A stretch of 63,875 nt of DNA, counting the filler, from Dicyema japonicum (taxonomy: Eukaryota; Animalia; Dicyemida), in the NCBI GenBank assembly GCA_011109175.1. It is 6 parts of 6 records of this genome, joined end to end, with 100 filler letters (N's around TTAATTAATTAA, not from the genome) between each part and the next. Parts side by side here need not be neighbours in the genome. Positions count along the whole stretch, not along the records: positions 48,189 to 58,028 come from RDEW01000080.1; 5 more parts are not named here. The stretch is one strand, 5' to 3'. Below are positions 30,201 through 62,632 of the stretch, piece after piece. Numbering within the stretch: position 1 is the stretch's first letter; every line of letters begins with the position of its first letter. The notes below the pieces were generated by a model that was given only the letters and a program-made list of their open reading frames with translations, had not been told where the DNA came from and did not search any database. Made by a program: the position numbers and the translations under genes.

Positions 30201-31786
30201 AACTATCAATATGTATCATTTGTAATTCATGCTTCATATATGTGCGAACAGCATATTTAATCCACATTATAAATCTGTCAACATGTGCATAACACAATAG
30301 CTGAAAAAATGTTGAAGAGTCATAACACTCATCAAGCATGAGATATAGTCTCGTAAAATTCATTTAACGCATTAGCACACAATAGCTGAAAAAATGTTGA
30401 AGAGTAATAACACCCATCAAGCATGAGAAATAGTCTCGTAAAATCCATTTAACGCATTAACACAGAACATCAAAACTTGATCTACTAATAAATAAAGTAA
30501 ATAAACAAACGAACATGGAGAATTTGTGACATGCATTGCCTCAAAGTTATAACGAGCATAATTGTGCCATAACTACAAATTAAAATCATATATACCTTAT
30601 AAATGTCACTAGAATAACATTTATTTGAATTAATTTTATTCATAAAAATCATCAAGGAGGTTGAGCAGAGGCTTTATAGAAGTATTATTTATTCCGTAAA
30701 ATCGTTCATGAAGGATTATAAAGGAATTTATAAGTCTAGAAGAGTAGGATTTCTCTAAAAATCATAGAGAATATTAGGCTTTTTTTAGAGTAAGTTTTAT
30801 TTATTTGTGATAAAATGTTATGATGATTTTTACTTATTCTATAAGTCATCAACTAAACTTATGACAAAGCGATTTTTTCAGAGAGACGTTACATTAAGTC
30901 TGTCTCGCTTATCTGTTACCCGAACTACTTCCCTACGTTCAGTGGACGATTGTGCCACGAAAAAACCCTGGTGGTAAAACTAACATAAACTTTTTTTTAA
31001 GTGGGATATCAAATCAAAGGAATAAGACTTTAGTTTATTAGATAAATGTTCATCATGGAGATCAATAATCTAAAATAGTATAATGGAGTGCATGAAGTGC
31101 AGATTCATAATCATTCTTAGCAATTGATCCCACTGATAAATAGAACGCTTTCTAGGGAGTGTTAAAGGGTAGTTTTTCATTATAATTATCGAATATTCTC
31201 CACTTTCCGAACTCCCATAATGTAAGTGATCCAATGGCTGACAATTTATTATCACTTGATATGATATTAAGGTAATATTCAATCTCAGTCTCCAATTGTT
31301 CAATACAAATGATAATAATGAAACTAGTAACCAAGATTTAATTGATATCTTAAATAACCAACGGTGGATTCTTCACAATTGTCCTTTTTGTTCTCCTCCA
31401 ATGCTGACTCCCAATCTACTATCGGTTCATACCATTGTCCAGTAAGTCTCTGTTGTTACTTAGATCAGATAAATCTAACAATATTCCACTCACTCAGCCG
31501 GAAGAGCAAGTAAATTATGTAAACTAATAGTCACCAAAAAATTACTTGCTTAAAATTTCCATCTATCTTCAGTAGAGAACGTCATCTCACTGTAATATAA
31601 AGCCTTTGTAAAGTCCAGACGATCTAGTCTACTTTGTACAACAGTGGTAAAAGAATAAAGCATTTATTCTGCCAAATAATATGTAAAATAACATAAAATA
31701 AAGCATTTATTATGCCAAATAATATGTAAAATAAAATAAAAATAGAGTTCAAAAAAGACATATTTATTTATAACAATAAAATCGTT

Positions 31787-32242
31787 CTAAAGTCCAGCGG
31801 ATATGATCGAGTGGCTGTTACCTCTGACTACTGCCAGGGATATCCTTTGGAAAAGCCACTCGGTTTCCCGACGCTCCCTCGAGGCTTTGGTCAATAGACA
31901 CCCAAGTGCTCTAAGGAAAGAGACCGTCTTGGAGCCAAAGACTCCGCTCGTCTCGACGACCACTGGTTGTACATGGAAACGGTTTAGGAGGCTGCTGTAT
32001 TTCTTTATTTTTGAGTTTTCATATAAACGGGCGGCCTCTCCCGCTTTCATTGCCGACCTCAAAAGTTTCGACTGGGAAAAGCTGTCAGTACAGGCAGCAT
32101 CCCAAATTAAGCATTTGCCCCGAGAGAAGGGGAAGACAGTAATTCCATCGGGTCGCTTCCCATCATCCCTACTCAAGCCCGTTGGCTCTAGAATGGATGG
32201 GTATTCCGCCAACTCGAGTTCAACATATTCAAAAAGATCCAA
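31787..32242 (-). mobile_element. CRE-like element 3' end (RLE domain, open frame)
   Basis: LEPTGLSRDDGKRPDGITVFPFSRGKCLIWDAACTD...K..KY...PVVVETSGVFG...WLFQRISLAVVRGNSHSI. Confidence 0.9.
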
Positions 32243-32249
32243 AATTTAA

Positions 32250-37231: not shown

Positions 37232-37590
37232 ATGGACCTGACGGCATTCCGGGAATTTTGTTAAAACACCTTGGTAATGCTGCAATCAATTCGATTACGT
37301 CAATTTTTAATTTGTCTTCTAACATGAACGTCATCCATGCAAATGGAAGAACTCACATATAATACCTATCCTTAAACCAGGAAAACCGAAAACCTCAACT
37401 TCTTCCTACCGTCCAATTTCATTAACGTGCGCATTATCGCGCCTAATGGAGAAACTCGTACTCTGGAAAATTAAACCCCATTTGCCCGACTGCCACTTTC
37501 AACATGGTTTCAAATGTGAGCGTTCAACTACGACACATTTGACTTCACTGTCTCAATTTATATCAGAGGGGCTCAACGTACCGAAACGGA
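37232..37590 (+). mobile_element. I/Jockey-like RT N-terminal fragment
   Basis: GPDGIPGILLKHLG...IIPILKPGKP..SSYRPISLTCALSRLMEKLV...FQHGF. Near-identical to 58129-58310. Confidence 0.85.
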
Positions 37591-38439
37591 TAGGGTAAGT
37601 CTAGTTCTTTTAAACATCATGTGATGCACAACACCACCATATAGGTGAACCACGCGGAATTTTGTTAATTAATTTTTCAACTCCTGTTAATCATCTACAA
37701 TGGGAGTCAAAGATCCTTATATTTGGAGACCATCTGGAAATGAGAGCTCTTAAGTTCCTCTCCCAAGCCTACAGCCTAGAACATCCCTGCCACTCCCTAT
37801 GCAAGCCGCAAAACAAAAGGAAAATTATTATAACAACCAGTGACCTGTCTAGAATATAATCATCATTCCTTCAATCCCCAATGACAGGAGTCATCTGAAA
37901 CAGATACAAGATTTTGTTTCTAAGAGAAGCATCCGAATCTCGGAAACAGTAAAATATTACAGCGACCTCCTACTCCAATGACCAATCAGAATCCTCTATT
38001 TGAAGGGACGTGCGAGTAAAATTTGTTGTACAAACAATTCAATGAGCCATCTGTCAGCTATGCCTGTACGTCAAGGAGAATCAATCTGTCCTGGACGAAC
38101 AAACAAAGAATCCAAAACATTCAGGTCTTATTTGTAATCTTGGGAAAAAAAAAACTAATTCTCTAATCACGTAACACCTGAAGAACTAATCGGACAAAAT
38201 GGAAAGGGATTTGCTAATTTGTGCAAGCATTGCAACTCTCAACAATACACAACCACGACGTATCTTATGAGAAGGGTATACATCACCCTCTCATATTCCT
38301 ATTACCGGAACCACCCCGCCCACAGAGAAGTTGTGTTGGATCCCAGAAAGCGCACGAGGAGAAAATGAAAATTATGATTGAGGTCTTCGAGATCACTCAA
38401 TTAATTTAGTAATTAAATTAACTATTAGTGGTCTAATGT

Positions 38440-38541: not shown

Positions 38542-39990
38542 NNNNNNNNNNNNNNNNNNNNNNNNNNNNNNNNNNNNNNNNNNNNNNNNNNNNNNNNNNN
38601 NNNNNNNNNNNNNNNNNNNNNNNNNNNNNNNNNNNNNNNNNNNNNNNNNNNNNNNNNNNNNNNNNNNNNNNNNNNNNNNNNNNNNNNNNNNNNNNNNNNN
38701 NNNNNNNNNNNNNNNNNNNNNNNNNNNNNNNNNNNNNNNNNNNNNNNNNNNNNNNNNNNNNNNNNNNNNNNNNNNNNNNNNNNNNNNNNNNNNNNNNNNN
38801 NNNNNNNNNNNNNNNNNNNNNNNNNNNNNNNNNNNNNNNNNNNNNNNNNNNNNNNNNNNNNNNNNNNNNNNNNNNNNNNNNNNNNNNNNNNNNNNNNNNN
38901 NNNNNNNNNNNNNNNNNNNNNNNNNNNNNNNNNNNNNNNNNNNNNNNNNNNNNNNNNNNNNNNNNNNNNNNNNNNNNNNNNNNNNNNNNNNNNNNNNNNN
39001 NNNNNNNNNNNNNNNNNNNNNNNNNNNNNNNNNNNNNNNNAATAAGAATGGGATGTAAGCTAATAATTCTGTAGGAAATGGAGTCTTGCTGGAGACTAAC
39101 CTGGCTTATCCTGAAGATGAAAATGATATCCCTGCAAAACACAGTTACAGTGTCTACAATGTTAATCAAGAAAAACGTTTCCATGGACCCCCCGTTCTTA
39201 CTGATAAAATGACGTCACTTCTAAATACTAACTTTTTAGAAAAAATACCTACCCCTTGAATCTCGCCTACTAATACCTATCCAGAACCTAGTTGCATAGT
39301 GGAAAACCTACATCCATAATATTGTTTAATACTATCGTTGAATCATTCTGCCTATAAAAAATATTGAGCGAAAATAGCTTCCTAGTTATGGTGTGGCTCT
39401 CTAGCTTTACCTAGTAAATATCAAAATCGTCATCTGAATACTAGTTGGAAATTGTCTAGATAAAATGATTATTGACACAAAAACCTCTCCCCCAGATAGA
39501 AAGAAGTTAAACCTAATTAAGTGTCTCCAGTTTCACTGTCATTGAAACAGACTCTTTCCAATGTCATACAAGTCCGTTCAGAACAGCATTAAAGGTAAAG
39601 AAGATTCCCAATTAATGTGTATACGAGTTCGAAAAGATAATGTACAAACACAGAGATTAATGGAGATAACTTCACGGAGTACCATAGAGAAGCTTGAGTT
39701 CTTTTGCCAATAATCTATAAATTTTTCTACTTCAGTTTTAACAATTCTTGAAAGTAATTAAAATCTTAATATTTGAATATTTTTCGNATGTGTATACGAG
39801 TTCGAAAAGATGATGTACAAACACAGAGATTAATGGAGATAACTTCACCGGAGTACCATAGAGAAGCTTGAGTTCTTTGAAATAATCTATAAAAGTTTTT
39901 TATTTCAGTGTGTTTTAACAATTCTTGAAAGTAATTAAAATCTTAATATTTGAATTTTTTTAGGTATTAAGAATTTTGAAGTTAACTAAA

Positions 39991-40050
39991 GCCTTCCTCG
40001 CGCAACGGTTAGCGCGTGCGTCTGTTAACCGCAAAATTGCTGGTTCGATT
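39991..40050 (+). pseudogene. tRNA-Asn(GTT)-like pseudogene, 3' truncated
   Basis: GCGCAACGGTTAGCGCG D-arm, CTGTTAA anticodon loop, GGTTCGA T-loop. The 3' T-stem and acceptor strands are absent. Confidence 0.55.
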
Positions 40051-41299
40051 TGTTACTGGTTAATTTTTGCAAATCTATTTTAACAGATTTTATTAAATCA
40101 AATTAAAAAAAGAACCCACAAGATTTTCACTCATCGTCCTCTAATGGATTTCTTTGTAATAAAATAGTAGGGATGATTCTTTCATTTATTTCATTGGCAC
40201 TTTCATCTTCATAATGGACGCATTTACTTCTTTTTTTTGACTNTCAAGAATAACGTTTCCATGGACCCCCCGTTCTTACTGATAAAATGACAAATTAAAA
40301 AAAGAACCCGCAAGATTTTCACTCACCATCCTCTAATGGATTTCTTTGTGGTCAAATAGTGAGGATGATTCTTTCATTTATTTCATTGGCACTTTAATCT
40401 TCATAATGGACGCATTTACTTCTTTTTTTTGACTTATAGCATTCCAAAATAATAATCCCGTCATTGCCGCGAAGCCTCTAAGTGTTTGGCTGTTCTTCAT
40501 AAACAGGCAATAGCTCTATGTTCGAGATGCATATTAGGACATGTGTGGTTGATGACTGTTTGAAACATCTTCATAAAATTATCATTTGCTTAAACTTGAA
40601 GGGCTAGTAAGGACAATTGAAATATAGAATATCGGATATAAAACAAATTTAATAATGAAGGATGTTTGAGGAACATTGTTCGGTAACAAACGAGATGTTG
40701 ATACCATACTCTTCGGCGTCGCACGGAAAGGAAATTGAACAGTCCCAGATTTACATTCGGATTAAGTCGGATGTCTTTAAAAATTTCACGACAAATCCAA
40801 AATTTGTCATAGTTAAGCGATCTGGTCTGAAGTCTTATTGGAAGGAAGATGATGGAAAATGTGAGAAATTAATCTATAGAAAAAGTTTTCTAACACTTTT
40901 TCATTGTGCATGTAAAGAAGAGTAATCCGGGAATTACAAGTAATAAGATTTATTTTTTTTATGATTTAAAAATATTTTAATTTATATTTAATCGATTTTA
41001 AATATAAATAAATAAACGTGTCTATTTGTATTGTGTCTTTTGGCACTGCACTAAGATCTCCATTTAATTAATTAAAATGGTCGAAAAAGTGCAATATTAT
41101 CTTACACTTCACGTTGCTACTATCTTAGTAGTTAGTATAGTTTACTACATTCATTTTTTACACGTTACTTTGCCGATGATACTCGATGTCTATCGGATCC
41201 CCTNGATCTCCATCTAATTAATTAAAATGGTCGAAAAAGTGCAATATTATCGTACACTTCACGTTGCTACTATCTTAGTAGTTAGTATAGCTTACTACA

Positions 41300-43430
41300 T
41301 TGAATTTTTAAACGTTATTTTGCCGATGATACTCGATATCCAGAGGAACCCCTTTAATCCACCATTTGTGATTTCTTCACTGAAAATTCTCACATATGCC
41401 CAAGAATATTGATACTCACCATTATTATTCAACTTTTCTCTGGTTGTTTTTAAGCTGCTTCATTAGTTAGATTTGGCTCTTCCAAATTTTGTACCACATG
41501 AGATACGAACCCAGAGATTATTATATTCCGTCCATTCACGTGAGAGAGTCGATTTCCTATGTTACAACCAGATACACTTCCGGGCGAGGTTAGGTCCTTT
41601 GATGAACATAGAATAGAAATATCTGGGGGGGATAAGGGGAACCGGGATAGGATATCTAGAACGGCTACTATTACCTTCTTTCTATTTGTTTAAAAAAGGT
41701 ATATCCAAATGAAATAAAAAGATGTTACATTTTCTACCACGAGAACACCTTGACACATTGCCAATATTAGAGGTATAAATTGCAAGTGCTATGTTCCTGT
41801 AGAAAATCTTGTTCATCACTAAGTAACAAGATGTGAGGCAATTTTTACAAAAATTTTGAACTTAGCAATTAAGGTTTCCGAGCAAGGAAATATTTAAATT
41901 TCTTTAAAATCGTGCTTTATTCAAAAATCCAAAAAATTTAGCGGTTAATTTGTATGAGAATTTACGAAGTTACCTCTTACAAAAATTTTCAAACTTGATG
42001 AACCTTATTGTTTTTTGTTTCTCGTGGCTTCTGAGTATATCTAGACACAAAACGCTCTTAATGATGGACAAAGGCTTATTACTTATAATTTCAGATGTCT
42101 CAACAATACTTGTAGAAAAACCTTATTCTTCTTCTACATAGTACCTTCACCATCGTTTAATGATGTTCTTATTGAACAGTGTGACACAATTTCAGTATTG
42201 TCTTAATTGTCATTTATAAAGTTCAATCAATATTGACGATACTACATTTGCCTTTAATCCATAATTTCAAACTTCACGAGTTGTCAGAGTCTACTTTCAT
42301 TTGATCATATCAGACAATGTTGTTAGAGACGTCACTGTCAAGCTCCTGATCGTATCAGACACAAGATTATAAGATCTTGTTTGAGAAAAAGTCTTCGTTC
42401 CAAATTCAATTAGAAGTCTTTGAATATTCCTAATGACGATGAAGTCAACATTTCAGTAGACGTAACCGAGGGACTAAAAAGTTAAAGATATCCGTGTCTA
42501 GCGCAAGAGGATTGATTTGAAAGTACATTGAATGTCTCCATATGTTAAAATCATCTCTATACGGGATTAGGTTTTTTTTTTAAAAAAAAGACAACTTATC
42601 TAACCACTGCAATGTTAAAGCGAGTTACATTTCCCATCCATCATGAATAATATCAATTTGAGTTATCATTAACCCAAAAGACATCAATTACCCGTTAACC
42701 ACCCAAGTATAAATTTCTAAGCGCACCAGAAAAAACAGCCATTTTAATCAAAATTTCTGGAAATTAGTCTTTGTCTCACCTATCGTCCTTAGAATGAGGA
42801 TAGTATTCTATGTATTATTCTAATTGGAATAGAAATGGTTTTAGTTTTATGAAATCGACAATAGGGACCAACAAGACTAGTCATAATTAGAGAAAGACAA
42901 AATTCAATGGTAAGTCTACGAAACTGCACAATTTCTTTTCGATATTTAATTCTAAGCTTATCTCTATGTGAATGGACGAGATGATGGAATGGAAACATTA
43001 TATACAAAATTTTTGCAGCATGGAAGAGTCGATTGCCACTCTCTCGCTTTATACATATAGCAAATTGGAGATGATACTGTCGAGATTCTTGAAATGGACT
43101 CCCAAATCGATCGTATGGAAGACGGAAAGTGTCACACCAATCATTAATTTCTTAACGTAACTCTAAAGATACGTTTTAAAATGGCCATGTCTCCTGAAGA
43201 TCCATTTATTCGGAAAGTAAGATTATATCTATAAGCCAGTCCATGATAAGAGAAGTATCCTGTGGAGGTTTATCCAAGATTCCAAGACCAATCGCACGAA
43301 GAAACTTTGTATGGGCACCTGGATCAATAAATTTATACGATAACTCATAATCTTTTCTGTGGTTCCTCGGTTAAAAAATTAAACTTAGAATTAACGGAAT
43401 CTATCGATTTGCTAAGATGAACCCATTCGG
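41300..43430 (-). pseudogene. Putative endogenous Mononegavirales-like L gene, C-terminal half
   Basis: In order on the minus strand: SPFQESR (cf. LFQNSRT), VGPY..KTK (GxxT region), YTWVVNG, TFKSILL (cf. MFQ..LL), YPIP..PP, TNGGLKGFL (MTase-like). Spacing is compatible with rhabdovirus L. Many stops. Confidence 0.45.
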
Positions 43431-43984
43431 TATATATATTCTATAATTTAGAAAATACATACAATATACTAAATGTCCTCAGTAAGGATGGTTAAGGTGG
43501 GGATTATTCATTGAAAAACTACTCAGTAAGTGTCACTTAATTGCTAGTGAAATAGAAACAATTTCAATACTAGTCAAGACTTTCCCCAACGATGAACCCG
43601 ATATAGTTTAGTTTCTTTTGAAAACTATGTGCTATGAATATAAATGCCAATTTCAAGAAACACAAGAATCGATAATGAGAGGGAGAAAAGGAAGGTTTTT
43701 TGACATTATGAGTCAGAAACACGAGAACGACAGAGAAAGCTCTTCCTATGGTCCTCGAAGTGGACCTCTAAATGACCGGGAGACGTCTTAGAGATAGAAG
43801 AATCTGGATAGATAACGGGAGCTTCCATGTTAAAGAATACAATTGGAGTATGATGTATTACAAAAAACAACTTATAATCATACAAGAAGCGTTGCAAGGG
43901 GTATCTCCCATAGAAATATCTAACTTGTTGCAAGTTAATTGTAATAATGAATACAACTATTACAAAATAGGACAAAGCTTATAA

Positions 43985-45620
43985 ACTAGGTGGAGATCGT
44001 AGTTTAGTATTATCGAAGGGAATAAACATAACAAAATGCATAAAGGAAACTGGTCTGTAAGGGCCGGGATCGTTCTTCGGTCTTCCCAATTTCAAAATTG
44101 GACGAATTTTTGATAGTTTCCATAAAGTCGGTATGGTATTTATGTTCAGCGATGTGTTGTAGATGATTGTCAATGCATTTATTGCCCATGTTTTTGTATT
44201 TTTTCTGATTTGATATTTCTTTGGATACATCTTTAGGAAGAAAATAAATCTGCGGGGCTATTTTGGATGGCTTTCTCTATTTTCGGTTGTGTGTTAATAT
44301 TTTTATAAGGAATGTGACTGATTCGGATACAATGTTTCATAAATTTATTCAGATTGAGCTGGCATTGTTCTTTGTTATCTTTGTATTCTGGGTTCTTCAG
44401 ACGCCTCAACATCTTCCACATGTTGGAAATTGATTTTTCATGGGAACAGAGATTTGCATGAGTTTCTTTTTTTGGGTGTTGTTAGTGCTTTTCGTAATAA
44501 GAATGTTTAGTGACTGATTCGATTAATGACCTCTCGTGAACGATGTATCATTCTCTTAAGTTGTTTCTTTCCATAATTATTTTCTTTGTTTTTGAGTCGT
44601 ATTTGAATTTTTAGTTTTTTATATATACATTTCTAATAAAAATACAACTTTGTCTATGGAAGAGAAATTTTCAGGGTAGAAATGTTGCAGTTTTGAATCA
44701 ACGAAATTTGTAAAACCAGTCCACTTTGCATTTTTGTAATTATAGAAATGAATAGACTTCGGTACAAAATGTGGCTCGGAGTTTAGCTACATTATCAATG
44801 AATGGTGGTCACTCCGGAGGTCATAACGGACCGTCCAATTAATGAACGGGGAAAGACGAGGCGAGCAGACGGATAAGTCAGGAGATGTCACCATATCCTT
44901 CGTGTTGTATGGTGTCCTAGTGTTCTTTTTCGGGTTGTTGGTGATTATTAAGTTTTGCATTTGGGATTATAGCTGGTTTTCTCTGTTATCAGCGGACTGG
45001 TAGCGGAACCAAGAAGTATTTCGCATTCTGGTCTCCACATAAAAGCAAGTTCTCCAGTTTGTTCAAGGTAGATAGGTAAAAGGCGAAATTTTTCTGCAGG
45101 AGCCAGGAGGAGGAACATAAACATTCGGAATTTCAATTTTTCCAATGGAAGTTATAACAGAGATTCAAATTATCTCCGTGTTCGAGTCTTCTAATAAGCT
45201 TTTGTAAGGAGAAAGGTTCTTGAGGTATTTTATTCCTTTTCTCACAAGAGTCAGTAGACCCTCTCCTTGGTCAGATGGGCGGTCGGATCTTACTGTGTTG
45301 TATCCGTTAAAAAGAGGAGTAGGAATGTTATTTGAAAACTTCATTGCCTGGAGAAGGCAGATGTCCACTCTGTTCCTCTCCAAGAATAAGGAAAGTTCGG
45401 CAATCTTTCCTCTGATCCCATTTATGTTATAGCTTTGGATTGTTAACTTCTTTGGGCGTGGATTTTGTTCCACGTCTCCTGAGGTCAACAGTCTCAATCG
45501 ATAGTATGTACAACAGTAAGAGAATGCCGTCCAGTGGGAAGTTCTCTGGTTGGTAGAGAGCAAATGGTTCTTATTAGATATCCGACGCCACCATTACGGT
45601 GAACCACAGCCGCACACTAA
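43985..45620 (-). mobile_element. I-group/Ingi-like LINE: 2A-like peptide + APE + RT N-terminus
   Basis: ORF 45165-45563 LRLLTSGDVEQNPRP then SYNINGIRGK...DICLLQ (APE). ORF 43979-44230 IYNTSLNINTIPTLWKLSKIRPILKLGRP..DPGPYRPVS (RT). Confidence 0.8.
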
Positions 45621-46815: not shown

Positions 46816-48299
46816 GAAATCAAATCAATTAAATAATTTTCTTAGTTAAGATGACTACTTTTTGGTCACATCTTACAAATGGATAGACTCGATTTTCTAG
46901 ATAGAACAGTATTTCGTTATATCCGGGTTTATCAAGAGAATATCCTATAATTAGTCAATTGATCGTAAGTAACAAAATCTTGTATACCATATCTTTTGTG
47001 AGGAAATTTTGGACATGAATTCTCATCTTCAATAAAGATTGTCAACTTAATTATAATGGTTAATAGACTTATACTTAAATTAATTATTAACTCAAAACTA
47101 AATACCAGAAAATGCGAATTTGAAAACTATTATGTAATTTCATATATTTAAAGTAATTTGAACCATCTCAATTCCTTCTAACAAATACACGATACATGAG
47201 ATTAATCCCGCCAAATCGGCAATCAAAATTATGGCTCCTGAAATCTTTAATTAATTTCTATCCAAATATTTTTGTATCAATATAGAATTTAAAAGTGGTA
47301 CATCACAAAAAAATCTAAACACGAAAAATAACTGGATTATAAAATTATACGAAAAACGCCAAACGAAATTTTTAATTTTGTCTAAAAACATGTTCGACAA
47401 AGTATGGAACTAAAATGGGAGACATTGACATCGGTCCCCGATTTTCGGAGTCAAAACGAAATTTTTAAACTTTTCTATAAACTTTTTCGTCGTAGTATGG
47501 TACAACACAATTATCATTTGTTTTAAACTCCCACAATTAATTATTATAAGGAAAAACGCTTATGTTTAATAATAGATGAAGAGAAAACTAGGCCGACTAC
47601 ATATTTATGTCGAACCCAACCACAAGGAAATTCCGATACGGATACTCTCGTTGTCCTACGCACGGAAGTCGATAAAAGCTTAGCCAAAAACGTTGTCATC
47701 TTTGCACACTGCCCTGTGATAGACGAGGCAGTGTCAATTAAAAAAAAAATTTAAGTTCCAGAAAGGAAAATTTCAAGAAACCCCATCCCCTCAATTTTTG
47801 ACATATATTGCTTGCGAGAACTCTGAGTCAAACTATTCAAAAAATCTGAGTTTCGGAAAAGGCCTCGTTGAATGACCAATTAATCTTATTAGATTCTATT
47901 CCTTATATTATAATTGGAAAGTTAGTTTTAAATCACAACCGTGTTATTCACAAGTTTAAGAATACTTTGAGTTGACTTTTGCTGTGAAATGGTTGTCTGC
48001 CATAGTAGTAAATTTCTATGGCTGACTTACCAGCCATAAAGGTTCATTGGCTCTGATATCCCAACCAATGATCACGTCGTTGGACATANNNNNNNNNNNN
48101 NNNNNNNNNNNNNNNNNNNNNNNNNNNNNNNNTTAATTAATTAANNNNNNNNNNNNNNNNNNNNNNNNNNNNNNNNNNNNNNNNNNNNGTCCCTTGTTCC
48201 CTCAAAAAACAAAAAATTTTATTTTGAGTCAATAAAGCGATTAAGCGAGAAAAGGGTCGAAAATAGAAAAGGTCGAAGCTCGAATATAAACACTATTCT

Positions 48300-48689
48300 G
48301 ATGGATTTAATGAAAATCAAAAGCGGAGATTACGCAGATGTCAGAAATTAAAACTGTTGAATGGATAATTATTTTTTGGATTGAATGGAAATCTTCGTAC
48401 CGTTATTTGTTCATTTCAAGAAGCTAGAATTAACTCAATTTTAGCTAAGGAACATTCTATTGGACATCCTGGTGTTTCCAAGATGTGCAATTAATTTGCG
48501 AAAAGTACATTGGCATCAATCAAAAAATTATTCGCCATTTTGTATCTACTTGTGATTCCTGCAACCATTTCAACAGTCTAAAGACTTGTGAAGATATTCA
48601 AATGATTACCGTTTCACATAAATTCGAAAGATTCATGGCTGATTGTATAGATCTTCGTAAATATTCTTCCTATAATAAAGAATATAAAT
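48300..48689 (+). mobile_element. Ginger-like integrase N-terminal part (H2C2 + first Asp), truncated by a LINE
   Basis: EHSIGHPGVSK...FVSTCDSCNHF...FERFMADCIDLRKYS..N.EYK. Confidence 0.75.
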
Positions 48690-49190
48690 TGGGAGGCAAG
48701 GGTCTCAAGGTAGCGTTGGAGATCGCCTTTCCACCATATGTGTCATCGCTCTTAAGCGGAACCCTTTTGGTCCAAGATATCCTACGTTTTCCAGCCTGAC
48801 TTTCTCGGGAAAAACCATCAACGAAGCTCGTCGCGAATGATGTGAAACTGGTTTGGATATGCCAAACGATCCTTCGAAGCAACGTGATTGGGATGAAATC
48901 TACTCCAAGAATATCTTCGACGTGCTAAAGTCTGAGGCCAACCAGTATCGTCTTGCATGCATCGTGTCCACCGCCAACTATGGGAATGGAGCATGGCTGG
49001 ATATACTCCTTTGTTACTCCCTGGTTACCCTTTTGGACAATGACTGTATTCGGATTGGGATCGCACAGCGCCTGAGATTTGATGTATACGTCAAACACCA
49101 ATGTCGTTGTGGAGGGATCGTCGATGCCGAAAGGCTTCATCCGCATTCGTGCAAAAAAAGTGCGGGCAGAGCACCCCGCCACGCTGCTAT
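48690..49190 (+). mobile_element. CRE-like internal fragment
   Basis: Colinear and highly similar to about 54455-54950; LHPHSCKKSAGRAPRHAAMN. Confidence 0.9.
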
Positions 49191-50039
49191 GAACATTTTA
49201 AATAAAAAAACGAATTAATAAAAAAACTAACCATTTATTGAGATTGGAACATCAAAGTCATAGGAGGCGATCTAAGACTAACAAACTCATTAACCTCCGA
49301 TGGTGGAATACTGTGGACAACTCATTAACCTCAGATAGTGGAATACTTTCGTCAGACTGACTAAAGACAGTATATTGTCGGCTTTGTCCAGTCTCAGCTC
49401 TACAAAGTAAAATATAACCAATAACGTTTTTCATTCTGAAGACTTGTCACTAAACTAAATCTCTGTAGTTCGACACATGAAACTCTACTTTTGTTTCATT
49501 TTGTGACTGAGATAATATCCCCTAATACCTTACTATCAATAGTTCATGGAAGAGCGAGTGAAGAGCCCATGTAAACTTTATCAAATTTCAACATATCCTA
49601 AAGTCCATTGATGAGAATATACTGGTTTGATTTTGAGAAAGGTCTGACAGGAGGTTTCACTTGTTCGAACTTCAATGTTGGGGGATGATTGGAGTGGTAT
49701 CACTAGTTCAGTCAAATTAGTGTATAGTTCCTGAATTAAACTGAGATACATAGCTATGTTATCTCGTTGGGTTTGATCATCCCACTTGTTGGAGTAACAA
49801 TCATATCAAATATTGGGGAGGGCCACTACTCTGGAAAATCCCATCTGCAATGTTCCCCAAACAAGAAACCTTTGCCTCGTATTTGAATTTAATGCTCTAT
49901 CCCTTAAATATAAGAAGAAATGTTACCTCGTTGTACACAAAATACGTTCTGAAGAGTATATTCCAATATTTGGGGTTATCGTATGAAATCAGGGGACAAC
50001 TCCAGTTGGTGAGTGATAATCTCTCTAATCAACCGTAAA

Positions 50040-52700
50040 TGGTCATTTATGCATTATTCGATTGATCTGGTATGATTACAGACTATGCTGCATGAGAATC
50101 CTCGGAGTCGTAAAGTGGAGATCAATCGAGAAGAAGGTCTTCGACTTTGCTTGAGGAAGGAAATCATTATTTTGTATTTCGTGGTGGTCGTTCTGATTAT
50201 TTACCGATAATACCTTGAGCAGCATGAACTGCACATTTTACTCCTCCTTGGGTTCTAATTGTGGTAATCAAGGATAACCAATATTATCAGTCCCCACGTC
50301 CTCCCAGGAAAGATGAGGTGGTCTCTTCAATGTCAATATTATTTTCAATTTTACTAAATTCCCTGCATTTATTCGAAATCAAGACTTTTCATGTTGTTTT
50401 TCGATAATGTCTTGATCCCATAGATAAGCTCGGTGTACTTATTATCATGCTCTTCAGAGGCCTACTTCAGTGCATCAACTTCAGGAGAATTTACCTATTC
50501 AATTTCAAAAGGAGGCTAATCGGCCGCCTTATATGATGCACTCAAAAGATGGCTTACAAAGATTTTTGATAAGTCATCTGAAACCACATTATTTGGCATA
50601 GTAGAACACCCTGGAGGGGTGGAACTATGGCGGTATCTCCACCGTGATTCAATAGAATCCTGTGATGTGCTTGGCGAACAGCGTCCTTCCATATCAAATT
50701 ATTCCCCTAAGAGCTGAAATTGTTTCCGAATTAGGGAACAAGACAAGAGTTGTCACAGTTTCACCCTCTTGAGTAAATGTATTGCAATCGCCTTTGACAC
50801 ATTTGCTATAGTTTGCAATCAAGTAGCACCCGTCTGTGTTCTCGTCATTTCATAGGCAAGATCAAACTTGGAAAGCCTTGAAACAACTCTGTCGAGTTGA
50901 AGACGTGAACTTTGATGACTACTATATGTTGTCATCAGATCTGACCTCAGGATTTCTGGCTGACGCATGAACTCATATTCGAGGTTCATGGAAGGCTTCG
51001 AACAATCAAATTATACAAGGTATTTCTCAAGATGTTGAGACCACGTCTCATCAATTTACCTGATTGTGTTGACACGTTTGAATCCAAACGTGGGATTATG
51101 ATAGGTGAGGCCATAACCAAATCTTCATTAACATTACTAAATTTAATAATAGAAGAGTTGGCGTACCTCACTTACATGAATAGAGTAGATTTACTCTGTA
51201 CAGGCAAATCTGCCCTAAAGGTCCCATGGAGATTTCTCCATATTGGCGGAGATGATCATCTCGCCAAAGGACCACTAAAATATCTTAATTTGATAACAGA
51301 AATTCACAGATTTGTTGGTTCTCAAATATCAGAAGATAAACACGGTTGGTCTAATGTAGCAGTCCGTTATTGTGAGAGATTGGTCTTTCTTGGAAACTAT
51401 GAATTCAGTTCACCAAATGGGAAAGACTACTCCCAATATTTGATCGTGGATTCAGTCAAGGTTAGGTTATTAGCTAAAGGTGAATACACCTGCTAAAGAA
51501 AAACAACTGTAACTCGGCCATGAGAAAGCGTGGCCAAATGATTAGTTGTCTCAAATGGTTACCAAAGGACGAAAGATCTTTTGCCTCTGTCAAAATAGAG
51601 TCGATACAGATCTCTTATCAAGAAAATGCATCCACTCTTACCATCTAAAATCCTAAATCCGCGATGTCTCGCGCACGTCCCGTTACCACAGGAGATTGGT
51701 GGCTTTGGTCTAGGCTTCAAATCTGAAGTCTATCTAGCTTACCTTGATAGTCCAGAACCAACTAAATGGTTACTGAATAAGGCTTTCAATGGTGAGCTAA
51801 TAACCGGTGAATTACCGGTTTTTGGACGTTTGAATTCAAACGTCTCACGGAGGGGAATCAAAAGCTTAAAATCCCTCGAGGACAGCGTCTACAATCAACT
51901 ATCCGAGAATCCTGGGATTGTTGATTGGATTACCAGGAAGGAGCTCTGTGAATTCACAGGCAGCAAATCTGGTAATGCTAGACTGACTCTTGCTCTCGCT
52001 AGAGAGAAAGGCTATATGAGTTTCCGTGATTTTGCTGAATTCAGCACACTCGGAAGTCTCTTTCAAAGGATACTCACCTCAAATGAAGAGCTTGAGAACT
52101 TGAACACCATGCCCAACGTACAATCGTACAAACACATCTGGTCTGAAATGGATCTCTTCTGGAGTTGATGTTTAATTAGCAGATATTTAGTTCTGCGAGG
52201 GAAGGAGGCGATGTTTTTGTTCAAATCGTTAGGGACCGCTACTTTTTGCCTCACATAGATCGCTATAATCAATTTACCTCTCTTTTGTCTTGCTTGCATT
52301 AAAGGATTTGTAGGATAAATTTAAAGGATCTGTTTTTAAATTAGTTGTCTTGGCATGTCGGATTACAGTTGATCCCTACCTCGGTTGTAATGAGAAGAGT
52401 TATTCTTCTCAAATAATGACAAAATGGACCAGGTTTGAATCTCTGCTTGTTTTTAGGTAGTTTAAGTTCGCAACTTCCAAGTAAGTGGAATTTGAAGCAA
52501 TCGATGACTTCCTTCAGAGAAAAGGGGTTTCTCCTTAACAAACAAAGGCCAGCACTTTCAATTGTTGATATAACGAAAATATTCCTGTTTGGAGGAAATA
52601 TAACATTCACGGAAATCTTTTTTTGTGGTTTAATGACACCATCATTCGGCGATATAAAGTTTTTGTTCTCTTCAAATCGACTCATAATTTGAGGAATTTG
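50040..52700 (+). pseudogene. Endogenous narnavirus-like (Lenarviricota) RdRp, near genome length, decayed
   Basis: TSGEFTYSISKGG*SAAL; TLFG..EHPGGVELWR; RAEIVSELGNKTRVVT; HPSVFSSFHRQDQTWKAL; motif A LSSDLTS; motif B KRGIMIGEAITK..LTL; motif C HIGGDDHLAKG; RYCE; VDSVKVRLL; LPQEIGGFGLG. Confidence 0.92.
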
Positions 52701-52849
52701 TATATTCTTTAACTAATTCCCAGCTTTTCGAAACTACCTCACGTAGCATTTTCAATTTGGATGAATTTGAATGAATTTGAATAATGACATTACAAAAAAA
52801 TTTTGAATTTATAAAATTTTTATTTAATAATGAAAATTAGGCAATAATT

Positions 52850-53950
52850 TTTGGTTGAGGTGGTGACGTCCCTCTATAGCACATATGTCTTTCTCACGTC
52901 TAATATCTAACTGCTTTTTTTCTGTAGGTACCCTGAATGTAAGAGGACTCAATCCAACATACAAGAAGCTTTAGCTGTCACGTGATTTGGATCACTATAA
53001 GGTATCAGTATGCTGCCTACAGGAAACAAAAATAACTGACAACACATGCATGCGGGTGGGAAATTATCATTTGATTACCCTTCCAACAACGTGTCGTCAC
53101 TATGGACTTGGATTTGCTATTCATCACACATTGTATAGTCGTATATCTCGGATGTGGGTCGTTACATACAGGATTGCGGTACTGCAAATCCGGTAGGGAA
53201 GCAAACCAAACTTTACAGTGACAATCATCAACATATACGCCCCGACTTGAATCAGGGCATCTGCCAATCCAGAAGAACTAGACGAATTCTACTCTGCCAT
53301 CATAAGGGTTTACCACACTCTCAGTTCTTCATATTTTTGCTTAATTGCCGGAGACTGGAATGCCACAGCAGGAAAAGCCAGATCTGGAGAAACTTGTATC
53401 GGATCTCATGGAAGAAATCGGCGAAACACGCCCGGAATGGCATTAAACCACTTTTTCACTTCCTTGGATCTGTTTTTGTGCAATGCAATACGGCATTCCG
53501 TCACCCAGCGAGACACAAGACGACGTGGACTGGAACTAGGAAAAATTTACAAGGAAATTACATAAAAATATATAATCAAATTGACTACATACTATGCAGA
53601 CGAGGTCACAAACATCTCCTCGTAGACTCCAGGTCATATGGAGGATTAGAGACACATAGTGATCATAAAATTGTGGTTACCCGCATTGGACTATACAAAG
53701 TCCATAACCAAATGAAAACACCTTCCAATAAAAAGCAGGAGCAATATGATATCCAATTATTACATGACAAGTCAACTCAACAGAAATATGCGTATCAACT
53801 AAATCTTGAACTCAATGATATCGACGAAACTAAACCTGTTCATGTTATTTGGGACAAAGTCACAAAGTCGATAAAAGGTACAGCATGTGATGTGTTGGGA
53901 ACTATTACAAAACCCCGTAAATTTTACAATCATGATATTTGCGTCCTATA
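52850..53950 (+). mobile_element. RTE-clade LINE 5' end and APE domain
   Basis: GTLNVRGLN; CCLQETKIT; CNTAFRHPARHKTTWTG...NQIDYILCR...SRSYGGLETHSDHKIV. Leader motif GGTGGTGACGT.CCTCT.TAGC shared with about 9515. Confidence 0.88.
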
Positions 53951-54169
53951 AGAAAGGGCTTTTCTGTGCGAGTGAGACTGATTCTGATGTCGAACTGCTT
54001 CTTGAGCAGATGCGATAACGTTGCTTACGTGTTTGCTGAAGATATTGAGATAAAAATACAAAACAATAATATTTTAAGAATATTAAATAAATAATAAAAC
54101 ATTGTTCTTTTTAATTAATATTGCTAATTTAATTTTATCTGGAAAATTAAGTAATTTTAAAATGACTCT

Positions 54170-55365
54170 TGCTGACGTGTAACTAAAGGAGCCATCCATC
54201 TACTAACAAAAGAGGATGAACTCTCCAGAGTCACGGAGAAACTCTCCTTACTCGATGGTTATACAGCGTTCTTCCTTTTGAAGAATTGCATCGGCTTGCC
54301 CAAACTCCTATATGCTCTCCGATGTTCTCCCTGCTTCAAACATCGTGACATCCTTCTGTCACTGGATAGGACATTGAGAAAATCATCCGAATTGTTTCTA
54401 AACATCCACTTTGACGTGCCGAGTTGGAATCAATGCAAGCTTCCTACACACCTCGGAGGCAATGGTCTCAAGTCAGCGTTGGAGATCGCCTTTCCAGCAT
54501 ATGTGTCATCGCTCTTAAGCGGAACCCTTTTGGTCCAAGATATCCTACGTTTCCCAACCTGACTTTCTTGGGAAAAACCATCGACGAAGCTCGTCGCGAA
54601 TGATGTGAAACTGGTTTGGATATGCCGAACGATCCTTCAAGGCAACGTGATTGGATCTACTCCAAGAATATCTTCGACGTGCTAAAGCCTGAGGCCAACC
54701 AGCATCGTCTTGCATGCCTCGTGTCCGCCGCCAACCATGGGAGTGGAGCGTGGCTAGATGCATTTCCGTGTTCCTCCCTGGGGACCCTTTTGGACGATGA
54801 CTGTATTCGGATTGGGATCGTACAACGCCTGGGAGTTGATGTTTGCGTCGAACACCAATGTCGCTGTGGAGGGATTGTCGATGCCAAAAGGCTTCACACG
54901 CTTTCGTGCAAAAGAAGTGCGGGCAGAGCACCCGGCCATGCATTGTCATGCGAGCTCTTGAAGCGGCAAGCTTCCCGGCAGTACTGGAGCCTGTGGGATT
55001 GGACCACGGAGATGGGAAAAGACCGGATGCGTTAACTATCTTTTTGTTCACTGAGGGAAAATCGCTCGTATGGGACTTCACTGTTGTGGATTCTTTTTCG
55101 AACTCGATGATACTCAGCTCGGCGCAGTCTGCTGGATCGGCAGCCGATCTGGCCGAGAAAATCAAGATTAAAAAATATGGCGAAATTGGAGACCGCTAGT
55201 GACGTCTGGTGCGGCGGAAGTATTACAGCCTTTTTCCTAAAGGAAATCGAGGGGAAATTGGCTCACCGCAAGAAAGACGTACGTCTGGCTGACGCAACGA
55301 ATTGGTATCGCAGTTGTCCGCGGAAACGCTTACTCCGTGATGTCAGCAGCCGCTCTCCCCCATAG
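54170..55365 (+). mobile_element. CRE-like LINE 3' half
   Basis: IGLPKLLYALRCSPC; QCKLPTHLGGNGL; LHTLSCKRSAGRAPGH; EPVGLDHGDGKRPDALTIFLFTEGKSLVWDFTVVD; LVSQLSAET-like terminus. Confidence 0.9.
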
Positions 55366-55849
55366 TTAATAAATAATATTATATTGTTAATAAATTTTTT
55401 ATAAAAAAAGTTAAAATCGTTAATATTTTAAAATCATAACGTAGCAAAAATCCGGGGTTATTTAAAAAAATCCACTCAAATGAATTGAGTGGCATTTTAA
55501 TGATATTTTATTATTTTTAATCAACAAAAAACTTTATTAATATTTAAAATTAAAAATTTTATTTTATTTCTGCAAATGGTTTTAAGCTTCACGTTGAGCA
55601 TAGATGAGTTGCGCCAGATATTCGAGTATCTCGATGGGTCGCTTTCCAAAAAATGTAAACAGCGTATTTGGAGGCTTGACACTTTGCTAGTTTTCGAGGA
55701 TGATGAAGTCAATTTCAGAGTAATTCGATTATAATAGGATTAAGGAATAATCTATTTCAGCAATTTTTTGTGATGAAATAGCAGAGCCGAAACAACGATT
55801 TTTGTAGTATTTTTGTCTATAATTAGTAGAATCAACATAATTTTGCTCA

Positions 55850-56720
55850 TATGGGGAGGATCATTTATTCAGTTATTTAAGAATAAAGATCTACAATTTA
55901 ACTCTTTTCGGAGTTGCAAATGTTGTGAAAAAATGTGTCTTGTCAGACCAAATGGCTGACTAAGACGAGGCCTCCAATTACGGCAATTATTGCAGAATAT
56001 TCGCGTGATAGATATATAGCTGATCTGGTGGATGTGAGAAGATGAACTTTTTTTCACGCATGGACTACTTATTATGCTAGAAACAGACAATTGTCTGAAG
56101 TTCTGAAACTCATTTCTCAGAGAAATTTTGTTACAGGCTAAATATTTTTTTATATCTAACTCAATTTATTAACAATCATAGGGAAGAGCGGCTGCTGACA
56201 TTAAGGATTAAGCGTTTCCGCGGTCAACTGCAATCCAAATTTGTTGCCTCAGTCAGACCGTTTCCCGCATATTGAATATATTTTTGGAAGACTGCGAACA
56301 CCGTGTGTTCAAGGCCAGGTTGAGAGGTATCACTTATATAATACGTATAGGTTAAATCAGTTTCAGATATTGAAAGAACTCTTATACGTCACAATTTTCG
56401 GATGAAGGCTTGAATAATTTACTGCAGTATTGAGATAAAGGATTATCGATGAAAGGGATTCTACCAGAAGACATACGTTGCTAGCTGCAGAAAAAAGCGT
56501 AAAAAAGAAGCTGGAAAATGATGAAGAATCATTGAATGTTGGGGATAAAGTTATTCTACGGATGGACAATGATTTCAATCCATCGACGAAAAGGTGGTTT
56601 ATATGAGCACCTGCACACTAAAATTTATCAAGTAGTGGATATACAAGAACACATGGTGCACATAGATGGTGGTAACTCATAAACAACGATAGACTACCAA
56701 AGCAGAATAAAAGATTGTTT
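55850..56720 (+). mobile_element. Ginger-like integrase remnant
   Basis: VVKKC.LCQTKWLTKTRPPITAIIAEYSRDRYIADLVDVR; FGRLRTPCVQGQVER; LNVGDKVILR. Confidence 0.7.
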
Positions 56721-56789
56721 TAAATGACTGTCCATTCTAGAAAGAATTTTTATCTTTTTGACTTGATGTGGAGTTAGATTTAGCTGTTG

Positions 56790-57070
56790 ACTAGGAATAA
56801 GGTTTAGAGTTTATATTATTAATGATTATGGTTAATGTTAGATATTGATTAGGGTAGAGATTACAATTAGATATTCTAAGGAAAGGCATTAGTTTTGATA
56901 TGGATAAGGGATAGGGTTCAAGATGTGGTTTAGGTCGAGTGATAATATTCAGGGTTTAATAATAAGGGTTAGGGCTTAGAGTAAGTCTTAAGGTTCAATT
57001 TTTATGTTTGAGATTAGCTTATAAAAAGGTTAGGGATCGGATTATACTTAGGAATGGGTAGGGTTAAGAA
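56790..57070 (+). repeat. Degenerate TTAGGG-like array
   Basis: Strand-biased G/T-rich stretch with TTAGGG, TAGGGTT, AAGGGTTAGGG, GGTTAGGG and TTTAGG variants at roughly 6-nt rhythm. Confidence 0.5.
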
Positions 57071-57559
57071 TAGAATTATTGTTTATATTAAAAGTTAATT
57101 TTCTCTTTAGTTTTTTTTAATTTTTTAATAGATTATAGGATATTAATTATAATAAGTTTGTTCTTGTTTGGATTTTATCACATTTTTCATGATTAATTGT
57201 GATCAGACATCAAATGCAATTTAAAAAATTGATAAATTTGAATAAAGTCAGGAAAAATGTTATAAAAATGCGAAAAAATTAGATGGAATTCCACGTACGG
57301 ACGATGACAATAAATATTTAAATTTTAAAAATAAAAATTTTATTTTTAAATAATATTTTATTGTTAATAAAATTTTGGAAAAAATAAAAAAAATAAAAAG
57401 TTAATAAAGTCAAAAAAGTCAAAATTTTGGGTAATAATAAAAAGGTCAAAATTTAATTTTTAGGTCAATAAAGTCATTTTTATCGATTTTTATTTTTTAT
57501 TTTTCGAGTTTTTAAATAAAATACTAGTTAGGGATCAAATATTATCATTCACTATGTTG

Positions 57560-58028
57560 CCGCGTTCAATCAAAATGACATTGAAAAGATCAACTCTTTT
57601 AGAAAATATCCTGATGAATTTTCTATCAACTCTCAAGGAAATCTTTTTTGGAATTTATGTGGGACATTTGTAACTATGGATTAACTTGACTCTTTTCACA
57701 GAGGCCAACTAAGAAAACTCCTTTGATGCCTTTGGAGAAGGAAATCTCAAACAATAAACTGACTAATAAGTCTAAACGTACTTGAAGCACTCTTGCGCCT
57801 TTTTGGACATATTCTACTGATGAATGAACAGACACCATGCAATGCTGCCATGGAAGAATTTTTCGGCCATACTGTATTTCCTGCATTTAGAGGACGTCCA
57901 AGAAGTTGTCTTTCAAAAATACTCGCAGACGATAACGCAATGATCGAAGGCCAACTGATGGATGCGGACAATCTGGACGAAATCAGAAAACGAGCTCGAC
58001 AACGGAAAGGATAATCGAAAACATGACA
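57560..58028 (+). mobile_element. RTE LINE 3' remnant
   Basis: Colinear with about 11680-12065 (ATAAGTCTAAACGTACTTGAAGCAC...); RLFGHILLMNEQTPCNAAMEEFF. Confidence 0.75.
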
Positions 58029-58128: not shown

Positions 58129-59020
58129 AATTTCATTAACGTGCGCATTATCGCGCTCAATGGAGAAACTCGTACTCTGGAAAATTAAACCCCATTTGCC
58201 CGACTGCCACTTTCAACGTGGTTTCAAATGTGAGCGTTCAACTACGACACATTTGACTTCACTGTCTCAATTTATATCAGAAGGCTTCAACGAACCGAAA
58301 CTCCATCTACGGACAATAGTGGTCTCCCTGGATATCCAGAAGGAGTTCGATTCTGTTTCGAGAACATTATTCACGAAAAAGGTTTTTGACACAACCATTC
58401 AGCCGGATTTGAAAAGATGGATAGCCAATTTTCTTTCCGGAGGAAGAGAACGTGTCTGTATAGGCCAAGAAGGATCGAAGTCCCGTCTCCTACCAAATGG
58501 CGTCCCTCAAGGATTGCTTCTCTCTCCGGCGTTATTCAACTTATTCCTCAACGATTTACCCTGCCCTGGAGGACCAGATTCAATGCTTCTCACTTATGCT
58601 GACGACCTAATCATCGCTAGCAGGAACAAATACGTGGGTACAGCAAAATCAGAGCTTCAGTCACATATTGACGACCTGGGAGCCTGGTTGAAGTTGAATC
58701 GTCTCTCCATATCCAGGGAGAAATCAACGTATACAATCTTCACCACGGACAGAAAAGAAAAACATACACTGGATTTGAACATTTATGGAGATTCCTTATC
58801 ATTACAGATTAGTCCTACTATCCTGGGAGTGACATTTGACCTTTTGATGACATTTTCTCAACATGTGAAGAACGTTATGACAAAGGGTCTCAGGAAACTA
58901 AATATAATCAAACCGCTCTTAAAGTCTAGGCCGTCACAGGAATGCGCTGTCGTCTTGTTCAATCACCTCCTAAAACCGACGATTGAGTATGCTTGAGCCT
59001 CATGGGCCTATAGAGTTTCG
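58129..59020 (+). mobile_element. I/Jockey-like reverse transcriptase, 278-aa open frame
   Basis: SLDIQKEFDSV, NGVPQGLLLSPALFNLFLNDLP, TYADDL, ILGVTFD. Confidence 0.92.
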
Positions 59021-61680: not shown

Positions 61681-61779
61681 TTGACCACATTTTAAAAATT
61701 TTTTTAGAAAAAATCCTATTCTCCTTATTTTTAAAAATAAAAATTTAATTAACACATGTCTTATAATTTCTCTCGTGGA

Positions 61780-62632
61780 CGCTATACTCGGATACTTTTA
61801 ATGAAAAAACTCAAATTGTTAATTATAAAGAAGAAAATGATGATATTTCGTGCCAGCGATTAGCTGATAGATTCTCAAGCAGTTCCGAAAGGATAATATC
61901 TAAAAAAACAATAAATAATCTTTTACTGAAGAAGGACACTATTTTGAAAGATTCAAAAAATTATCAACCGACTGAGTTACAACTCAGTAATTTCAAAAAT
62001 TCTAATTGATTCTTGGATAAATTCAAAGAGACACGGATTCAGAATGCGCAAGTTATACGGGAAAATGCAAAAAGATGAATCTGTCGACGTTAAATCCTTT
62101 CTTGAAGAATTTAAAAAAATTTCAAAAGCATATAAACCCGACCAAATCTATAATCTGGTTGAAACTGGGTTTTGCTATAAGCTCATTCCATCGAAAAGCA
62201 TCTGCAAAAACCGATTTCAAGGTTACAAAAATTTTAAAGACCATTTCAATTATGCCATGTTCAAACGCATAAATTGAAACCAGTGATGACTTTAAGACCA
62301 AACTGCCTCGATGTTTTCGCAATTATGCCTACAGATGCTCCTGCCATAGTTCACAAAGAGCTTGGATGACTGGATCCATATTTATGGATTGGCTGATTAT
62401 TTTTTGTATTCAGCTCAAGAATGAAAAAAACGATTTTTTCTATTGATTTAAAACTGCCCTGCGCATTGTATCCCCCCGAACTTGGAATATATAAAAATAT
62501 TGTTTCTTCCTAAAAATACTACGGGTTTGCTTCAACACACGGATATTGGTATTATAAAGTCTTTCAAGAGTAATTTTACCAGACGCAAGTTAATCTATTT
62601 TTTAATAACTCCAATAACGAAATTCTTGAAAT
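61780..62632 (+). mobile_element. Tigger/pogo (DDE_1) transposase remnant
   Basis: YKPDQIYNLVETGFCYKLIPSKS (cf. IYN.DETGL); ILFLPKNTTGLLQHTDIGIIKSFK (cf. FLP.NTT..LQP.DQG.I..FK). Confidence 0.85.

Follow-up and report, generated by a model that had tools for sequence, protein, structure and literature searches.

A decayed RdRp gene fragment of the PiRV-4/Matryoshka narna-like clade in apparently nuclear, transposon-rich DNA

Does the window (the whole stretch of DNA analysed here, 63,875 nucleotides long) hold an RNA virus genome fixed in a chromosome, and, if so, how much of it is left, from which virus did it come, and whose ancestors were infected? An initial annotation had read here a near-complete narnavirus-like genome of about 2.7 kb, endogenised in nuclear DNA. 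We have built a profile of the viral RNA polymerase (RdRp) from 43 relatives of at least 850 aa, out of 70 matched proteins, and searched it against the six frames of the window. RdRp homology was found on the plus strand at 50454-52153 (1.7 kb), between profile positions 271 and 875 of 959, in four domains whose E-values are far beyond chance (Table 1); the best match elsewhere in the six frames had an E-value of 0.21. As the annotation had stated, the narna-type motifs follow in order, all on the plus strand: ELGNK (50728), SSDL (50932), RGIMIGEAITK (51089), GGDDHL (51245), and RYCE (51365).

Table 1. Features of the RdRp fossil and its surroundings (positions along the window).
Feature	Start	End	Strand	Evidence
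CRE-like retroelement fragment	48692	49195	+	89.7% over 493 nt to 54455-54941; loose contig ends at 49195; high-copy; family label presumed
Low-copy 5' flank	49440	50453		No narna N terminus or Pfam family; in both read versions
RdRp block 1	50454	50654	+	Profile 271-338, E 4.5e-15; one in-frame stop
RdRp block 2	50698	50949	+	Profile 381-465, motif F region to motif A (SSDL 50932), E 6.2e-36; three in-frame stops
RdRp block 3	51005	51487	+	Motifs B, C (GGDDH 51245), and E; stop-free; part of the E 1.6e-118 domain
RdRp block 4	51490	51609	+	Profile 654-693, E 2e-7; other frame, between two frame changes
RdRp block 5	51602	52153	+	Up to profile 875; frame closes at 52166
Probable host gene remnant	52341	52770	-	123-codon stop-free frame 52344-52712; three weak Ig-like matches
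RTE-like element, 5' part	52845	54000	+	5' motif and endonuclease; Exo_endo_phos E 0.0043; no reverse transcriptase domain in this copy; label presumed

The matched part amounts to 537 of the 959 profile positions (56%), the first 270 and the last 84 being absent. The frame of block 5 ends about 84 profile positions before the C terminus of the relatives, 37 of which project the viral stop near 52418. Similarity ends sharply at both edges of a core that is 40-60% identical. On the flanks, the sub-profiles of the N and C termini gave -2.2 and -2.3 bits, whereas the best of 100 shuffles each reached 2.0 and 3.9, and wider profiles from 43 and 145 relatives were equally blank there (150 shuffles each). 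Pairwise searches with 210 proteins gave nothing consistent or above chance in 49200-50450 or 52170-52900, and among the alignments listed a single one, to PiRV-4, extends back to 50295 (32% over 120 columns). The metagenome contigs of five relatives (five of six loci) measure 2.2-3.0 kb, and a profile of their five ends did not find the 3'-end sequence of the relatives in the window (best match, elsewhere, E 0.87). Since the flank profiles, the pairwise searches, and the 3'-end search were all blank, the annotation's near-complete genome of 2.7 kb with narnavirus-type blocks at both termini has to be reduced to a 1.7-kb internal piece without recognisable terminal sequence, about half of a viral genome. 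Some further candidates around the fossil were discarded: the sixth locus, L006, a 32% match, had no profile match and is spurious; a second, inverted RdRp at 49420-49800 (minus strand), suggested by three pairwise matches near motif E (E 0.02-0.08), did not exceed shuffles when tested with two profiles; and a scan of viral versus host 4-mers was uninformative for the flanks.

The fossil carries four internal in-frame stops (50517, 50770, 50809, and 50824) and four frame changes, in agreement with the several stops and frameshifts annotated before. The deletion reported after motif A is also real: 26 profile codons are represented there by 55 nt, a net loss of about 23 nt. A larger deletion had been overlooked ahead of motif F, where 43 nt stand for 42 profile codons and about 83 nt are thus missing. 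Inherited stops, frame changes, and deletions are features of an endogenous element, and the fossil most likely has no protein function today. No alternative genetic code rescues the frame. A mitovirus, or a NERVE in mitochondrial code, was rejected, as the two long open blocks have six TGG and no TGA, the stops are of three kinds, and no mitovirus is among the named matches; an ambigrammatic reverse ORF was also rejected, with 48 reverse-frame stops in 537 codons. The clade is not represented by any Pfam family, as neither the frames of the endogenous viral element (EVE) nor five of five full-length relatives gave a relevant match, and a PDB sequence search with the EVE gave none. The AlphaFold models made in this analysis were poor (pLDDT 50.4 and 39.8); the named top Foldseek matches of the weak fossil model are narna-like RdRps.

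The fossil is an RdRp pseudogene of the PiRV-4/Matryoshka/Wilkie narna-like clade. Its stop-free frame 50945-51493 matches 70 of 727 candidate proteins with 42-59% identity over the palm. The named ones are narna-like RdRps, among them those of PiRV-4 (55%), Wilkie narna-like virus 1 (53%), Phakopsora narnavirus C (52%), and Reticulitermes grassei narna-like virus 1 (51%), and most of the 70 are unnamed environmental contigs. Among 1.84 billion representatives searched, 180 matched at E ≤ 0.001, none above 56%, and thus no close relative is on record in that set; in a near-length search for sister EVEs, 2 of 39 candidates matched (47-49%, both JGI).

For the phylogeny that the initial annotation had proposed as a check, the alignment began at motif B, and gaps were put in place of the stops and of the stretch that is out of frame. 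In an LG+G4 quick tree of 131 rows (96 near and 35 more distant matches, one further row having been dropped as too gappy), the fossil falls on a long branch (0.9) within a 62-row clade (SH-aLRT 96) that contains Wilkie narna-like virus 1, Reticulitermes narna-like virus 1, Matryoshka RNA viruses 1 and 4, Siminarna virus, and Phakopsora narnavirus C. This clade is nested in one of 78 rows (SH-aLRT 97) together with PiRV-4 and Bremia narnavirus 1. A 52-row mixture-model quick tree gave the same neighbourhood, but there the fossil joins P0026/P0038 (96), which are placed elsewhere in the 131-row tree, and thus its exact sister group varies with the model. The fossil therefore lies inside the PiRV-4/Matryoshka clade in quick trees whose rows are all matches of the query, with no named alphanarnavirus or mitovirus as outgroup.

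The fossil shares with PiRV-4 the palm identity given above, a supported clade, and the lack of a long reverse ORF; it differs in being a DNA pseudogene without both ends, and it is not sister to PiRV-4. In both trees, the named rows closest to the fossil are Matryoshka RNA viruses 1 and 4, Wilkie narna-like virus 1, Reticulitermes grassei narna-like virus 1, and Siminarna virus (45-53% palm identity), which are exogenous RNA viruses whereas the element described here is a DNA fossil. In the available part of PMC7010960 the PiRV-4 clade is called Betanarnavirus, with oomycete, trypanosomatid, algal, myxozoan, and arthropod sources, the myxozoan sequences placed in it being from transcriptomes. 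Matryoshka viruses carry a second segment, according to the accessible text of 10.1101/2023.09.17.558162, and nothing recognisable as that segment was found in the window. Among the environmental narna-like contigs, the last 70 bases of L002, L003, and L004 form a conserved common 3'-terminal sequence, likely a replication signal of the clade. In L001 and L004 the RdRp frame closes sooner than in relatives, with 928 and 756 nt of contig left, through either assembly error or natural frameshift.

Is the fossil really in the genome? The reads come from four runs of one sample in one study, with a library type that is not on record, and they are possibly the source of the assembly. The runs contain 0.36-0.39 of the words of 49300-53400, against 0.02 in a run of a second study, and contigs of the four runs were placed at 85% likeness; they cover 30 of 30 bins of the region in all four runs. 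Depth is low and even over 49420-52835 and ten to several hundred times higher over the flanking transposons, as it would be in genomic DNA; in run X1 the summed depth is 48,000-103,000 over the RTE-like element versus 1,000-3,600 over the EVE. Among the 32 pieces listed, of about 31,000, two versions of the EVE were found, about 99% and 90-96% alike to the window, with 4/321, 2/271, and 2/272 differences in the near-identical pieces listed and 20/205, 27/439, 31/359, 43/586, 12/208, and 8/227 in the divergent ones. The divergent pieces span 50540-51125 and 51504-51711 without a gap, and thus the two deletions, like three of the four frame changes, arose before the versions diverged, these three frame changes being old and not assembly errors. 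The two versions may be alleles, paralogues, or a pooled second species, all of which are compatible with the contigs. Every contig differs from the window at several sites (e.g., 49890, 51655, and 52459), so the sample does not match the assembled haplotype exactly, but is still a possible source. One contig in each of the four runs has a joint that skips 129 nt at 51545-51675 (short side, 30 letters), possibly a third version with a further deletion.

At the junctions, which the annotation had wished to see confirmed in reads, the two edges differ. The 5' edge is bridged in both versions and in all four runs by 6 of the 32 pieces listed (of about 31,000); the 3' edge is bridged by none of those 32, none of which reaches the flanking transposons, and depth is continuous. 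Reads from one sample are good support for integration, not independent proof. Endogenisation itself is supported, as a decayed RdRp in apparently nuclear, transposon-rich DNA whose lesions are shared by contigs of four runs.

On the left, the 5' flank is about 1 kb long with 37% G+C, and may be a host pseudogene or another, second segment of a virus; at the left edge of the low-copy block (49284-49353) a 35-nt unit occurs twice in tandem, the copies being 86% alike. On the right, an antisense frame, of a length reached in 2 of 1,000 shuffles, has sub-cutoff Pfam matches to three related Ig-like families (Ig_CFAP65_4th, E 4e-4; Motile_Sperm, 0.014; Cep192_D4, 0.03), and by eye a 25-nt GT..AG stretch (52737-52713) would join it in frame to an upstream ATG. 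No PDB fold match was found for it. As equally strong matches arise by chance among 150 other frames and the fold is uninformative, we go no further than to call it probably a host gene remnant. A CFAP65- or Hydin-like identity, if borne out, would suggest that the host is ciliated. The non-LTR retrotransposon that follows, presumably RTE-like, is 83% alike over 46 nt to 9502-9542, with 29-65% aa identity to the element at 9.5-10.3 kb. The EVE-RTE block is flanked by pieces of another retroelement family, which we take to be CRE-like, at 48692-49184 and 54455-54941 in the same orientation; further such pieces lie at 6493-7580 and 31787-32245, and many contigs join 49195 to 54941, as intact members of this family would. 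Both families recur on other contigs of the window.

An RNA virus that has no DNA stage can be integrated only with the help of a reverse transcriptase of its host. Because of this, and because the reverse transcriptases in the window are non-LTR-like (RVT_1, E 5e-27, at 58130-58993), a LINE enzyme is the likeliest agent and a LINE origin of the fossil is plausible. A narna-like viral RNA would have infected an ancestor of the lineage, a reverse transcriptase of a host retroelement would have copied it into a chromosome, the copy would then have decayed through stops, frame changes, and deletions, and the dead copy would later have split into two versions sharing most lesions. No target-site duplication was found at the fossil (the longest common word is 7 nt, the shuffle mode), which may have been lost, since the true edges are uncertain and the insert is old. 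A poly(A) tract was not found either, the only run of at least six A in 52150-52860 being A7 at 52794, nor was a direct junction of the fossil with a LINE. The initial annotation had probably a LINE copy, and an RTE 5' end in the same orientation about 150 bp downstream. The enzyme remains the likeliest one and the element is present about 150 nt past the annotated end, but it begins some 690 nt (~52845) after the last viral homology, and no target-site duplication, poly(A), or junction ties the fossil to it.

We consider it quite probable that 50454-52153 is a broken internal piece of a PiRV-4/Matryoshka-clade RdRp gene, likely copied by a retroelement reverse transcriptase into an ancestor's chromosome and since decayed. 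It is unlikely, by comparison, that about 49600-52500 is all viral, a near-complete copy with ends that have decayed or are too divergent to align. The ends of relatives do project to ~49600-49780 (four contigs) and 52499-52580 (five contigs), within a low-copy block that is large enough (49420-52835), and the PiRV-4 alignment back to 50295 and the long branch would agree with it; yet the terminal profiles do not exceed shuffles, 210 proteins give no consistent flank match, the 3' end of the relatives is missing, identity is high right up to both edges, and the antisense host-like frame fills 52344-52712. A template switch, in which the reverse transcriptase of the downstream RTE-like element copied its own RNA up to the 5' end and then continued on the viral RNA, leaving virus and then RTE in one orientation, seems quite unlikely. 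In known RNA/LINE chimeras the other RNA precedes the LINE in the same orientation, which is the arrangement at this locus, and the RTE-like family is high-copy. Here, however, about 690 nt with the probable host gene remnant and an 84% A+T stretch intervene, the longest common word again speaks for no target-site duplication, and with retroelement pieces every few kb in the window the adjacency of fossil and RTE is to be expected.

Two readings would deny the infection or the locus. A contig of a co-sequenced organism, or RNA or DNA from prey, a symbiont, or a hyperparasite, would mean that this lineage was not infected; the samples that gave the named relatives were oomycete, rust-fungus, haemosporidian, and insect ones, and the contig with the EVE (48189-58028) is separated by gaps from the TOR-like gene described below. 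This is very unlikely, as the RTE-like and CRE-like families beside the fossil are also present on other contigs of the window, with very high depth for both in these runs, and the common lesions of two diverged versions point to long inheritance in one lineage. That contaminating viral RNA or cDNA was joined into the scaffold, with errors mimicking stops, is hardly credible: the draft does have N runs and sequence duplicated beside single Ns, but contigs 6-7% divergent have identical deletions and frame changes with no gaps, and the 5' edge is bridged in four of four runs. Inheritance of a decayed copy is thus the reading that we retain, and the fossil likely records a past infection of the ancestors of this eukaryote. 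The direct evidence of hosting claimed before is likely but weaker than was stated, as all runs are of one sample with no library type on record and the 3' edge is unbridged in the listed pieces.

Which eukaryote this is can be approached through the rest of the window, a draft scaffold with 24 N runs, about 33% G+C, and many transposon pieces. A very divergent TOR-like kinase gene lies at ~29300-31500 on the minus strand (Pfam FRB, E 6.6e-4; TOR2/mTOR, E 0.04-0.1), with apparent stops and with duplicated stretches beside single N bases that resemble assembly overlaps. By eye, candidate GT..AG introns of 23, 23, and 25 nt occur in this gene and in the antisense frame 52341-52770. The exons flanking the candidate 23-nt introns presumably match mTOR, a match that searches did not confirm (three read-through frames, no PDB matches; downstream exon, no matches), and none of 22 candidate proteins matched the TOR-like fragment. 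As far as the available text of PMC13644364 goes, such introns are confined, within a set of 51 animal genomes, to myxobolids and Dicyema japonicum, and are also found in ciliates and microsporidia, which are not animals; the candidate introns would fit dicyemids or myxobolids.

Other observations in the window are five further mobile-element pieces at 58130-58993 (+), 37323-37595 (+), 45168-45593 (-), 21469-21822 (-), and 61767-62006 (+), comprising reverse transcriptases, an endonuclease, and Tc5- and Tc3-type transposase domains; coding-looking fragments in shifting frames at 42100-43500 (-); and, by eye, a tRNA-like stretch at 39990-40060. Sub-cutoff Pfam matches among 150 frames, namely Gad1 (E 1e-4, 19594-19833 +), Tox-MPTase2 (0.0014, 4817-5110 -), and CPV_RdRP_N (0.0085, 55524-55739 -), are probably chance in A+T-rich DNA.

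EVEs are spuriously reverse-transcribed virus fragments, and nine narnavirus EVE matches of the alphanarnavirus type are given for insect assemblies in the available text of PMC7010960; one narna-like RdRp is described in a Symbiodiniaceae (dinoflagellate) genome in the accessible part of 10.1101/2022.04.12.488082. As far as these texts go, both are, like the present fossil, RdRp-derived non-retroviral EVEs used as evidence of the true host, but the insect ones belong to the reverse-ORF alphanarnavirus clade, in contrast to the PiRV-4/Matryoshka clade here, and probably to a different host kingdom or phylum. Tombus-like EVEs adjoin TATE elements in trypanosomatids (PMC11108086, available text) and plant mitovirus NERVEs pass through the mitochondrial genome (PMC4393810, available text). 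In what these sources provide, they resemble the fossil as degraded RdRp fragments near a retroelement, with capture by it only proposed; they differ in virus group, and the fossil gives no sign of mitochondrial passage. No EVE of the PiRV-4/Matryoshka clade was found in the open-access literature searched, supplements aside, and no narna-like EVE in a dicyemid or myxozoan, the supplements of PMC7010960 being a place that may bear on the myxozoan link; the available texts of PMC12282059, 10.1101/2020.12.18.423567, 10.1101/2023.11.03.565523, PMC7876018, and 10.1101/2024.09.25.614983 contain no relevant EVE.

As a genome feature, this is an ordinary dead EVE, real but partial, and its value hinges on the host. 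The hosts of most narna-like viruses are guesses, since the viruses come from mixed samples, whereas a heritable fossil links the PiRV-4/Matryoshka clade with a single lineage of eukaryotes and sets a minimum age. We suggest tentatively, as one possibility, that the host is an animal parasite with ultra-short introns, a dicyemid or a myxobolid myxozoan; the fossil would then be the first genome-level proof that this clade, otherwise tied to oomycetes, fungi, and apicomplexans, infected an animal germ line, long enough ago for versions 4-10% apart. If the host is indeed a dicyemid or a myxozoan, the fossil would back the single mention of myxozoan sequences in this clade in the available text of PMC7010960, and it would show where a live virus should be sought.
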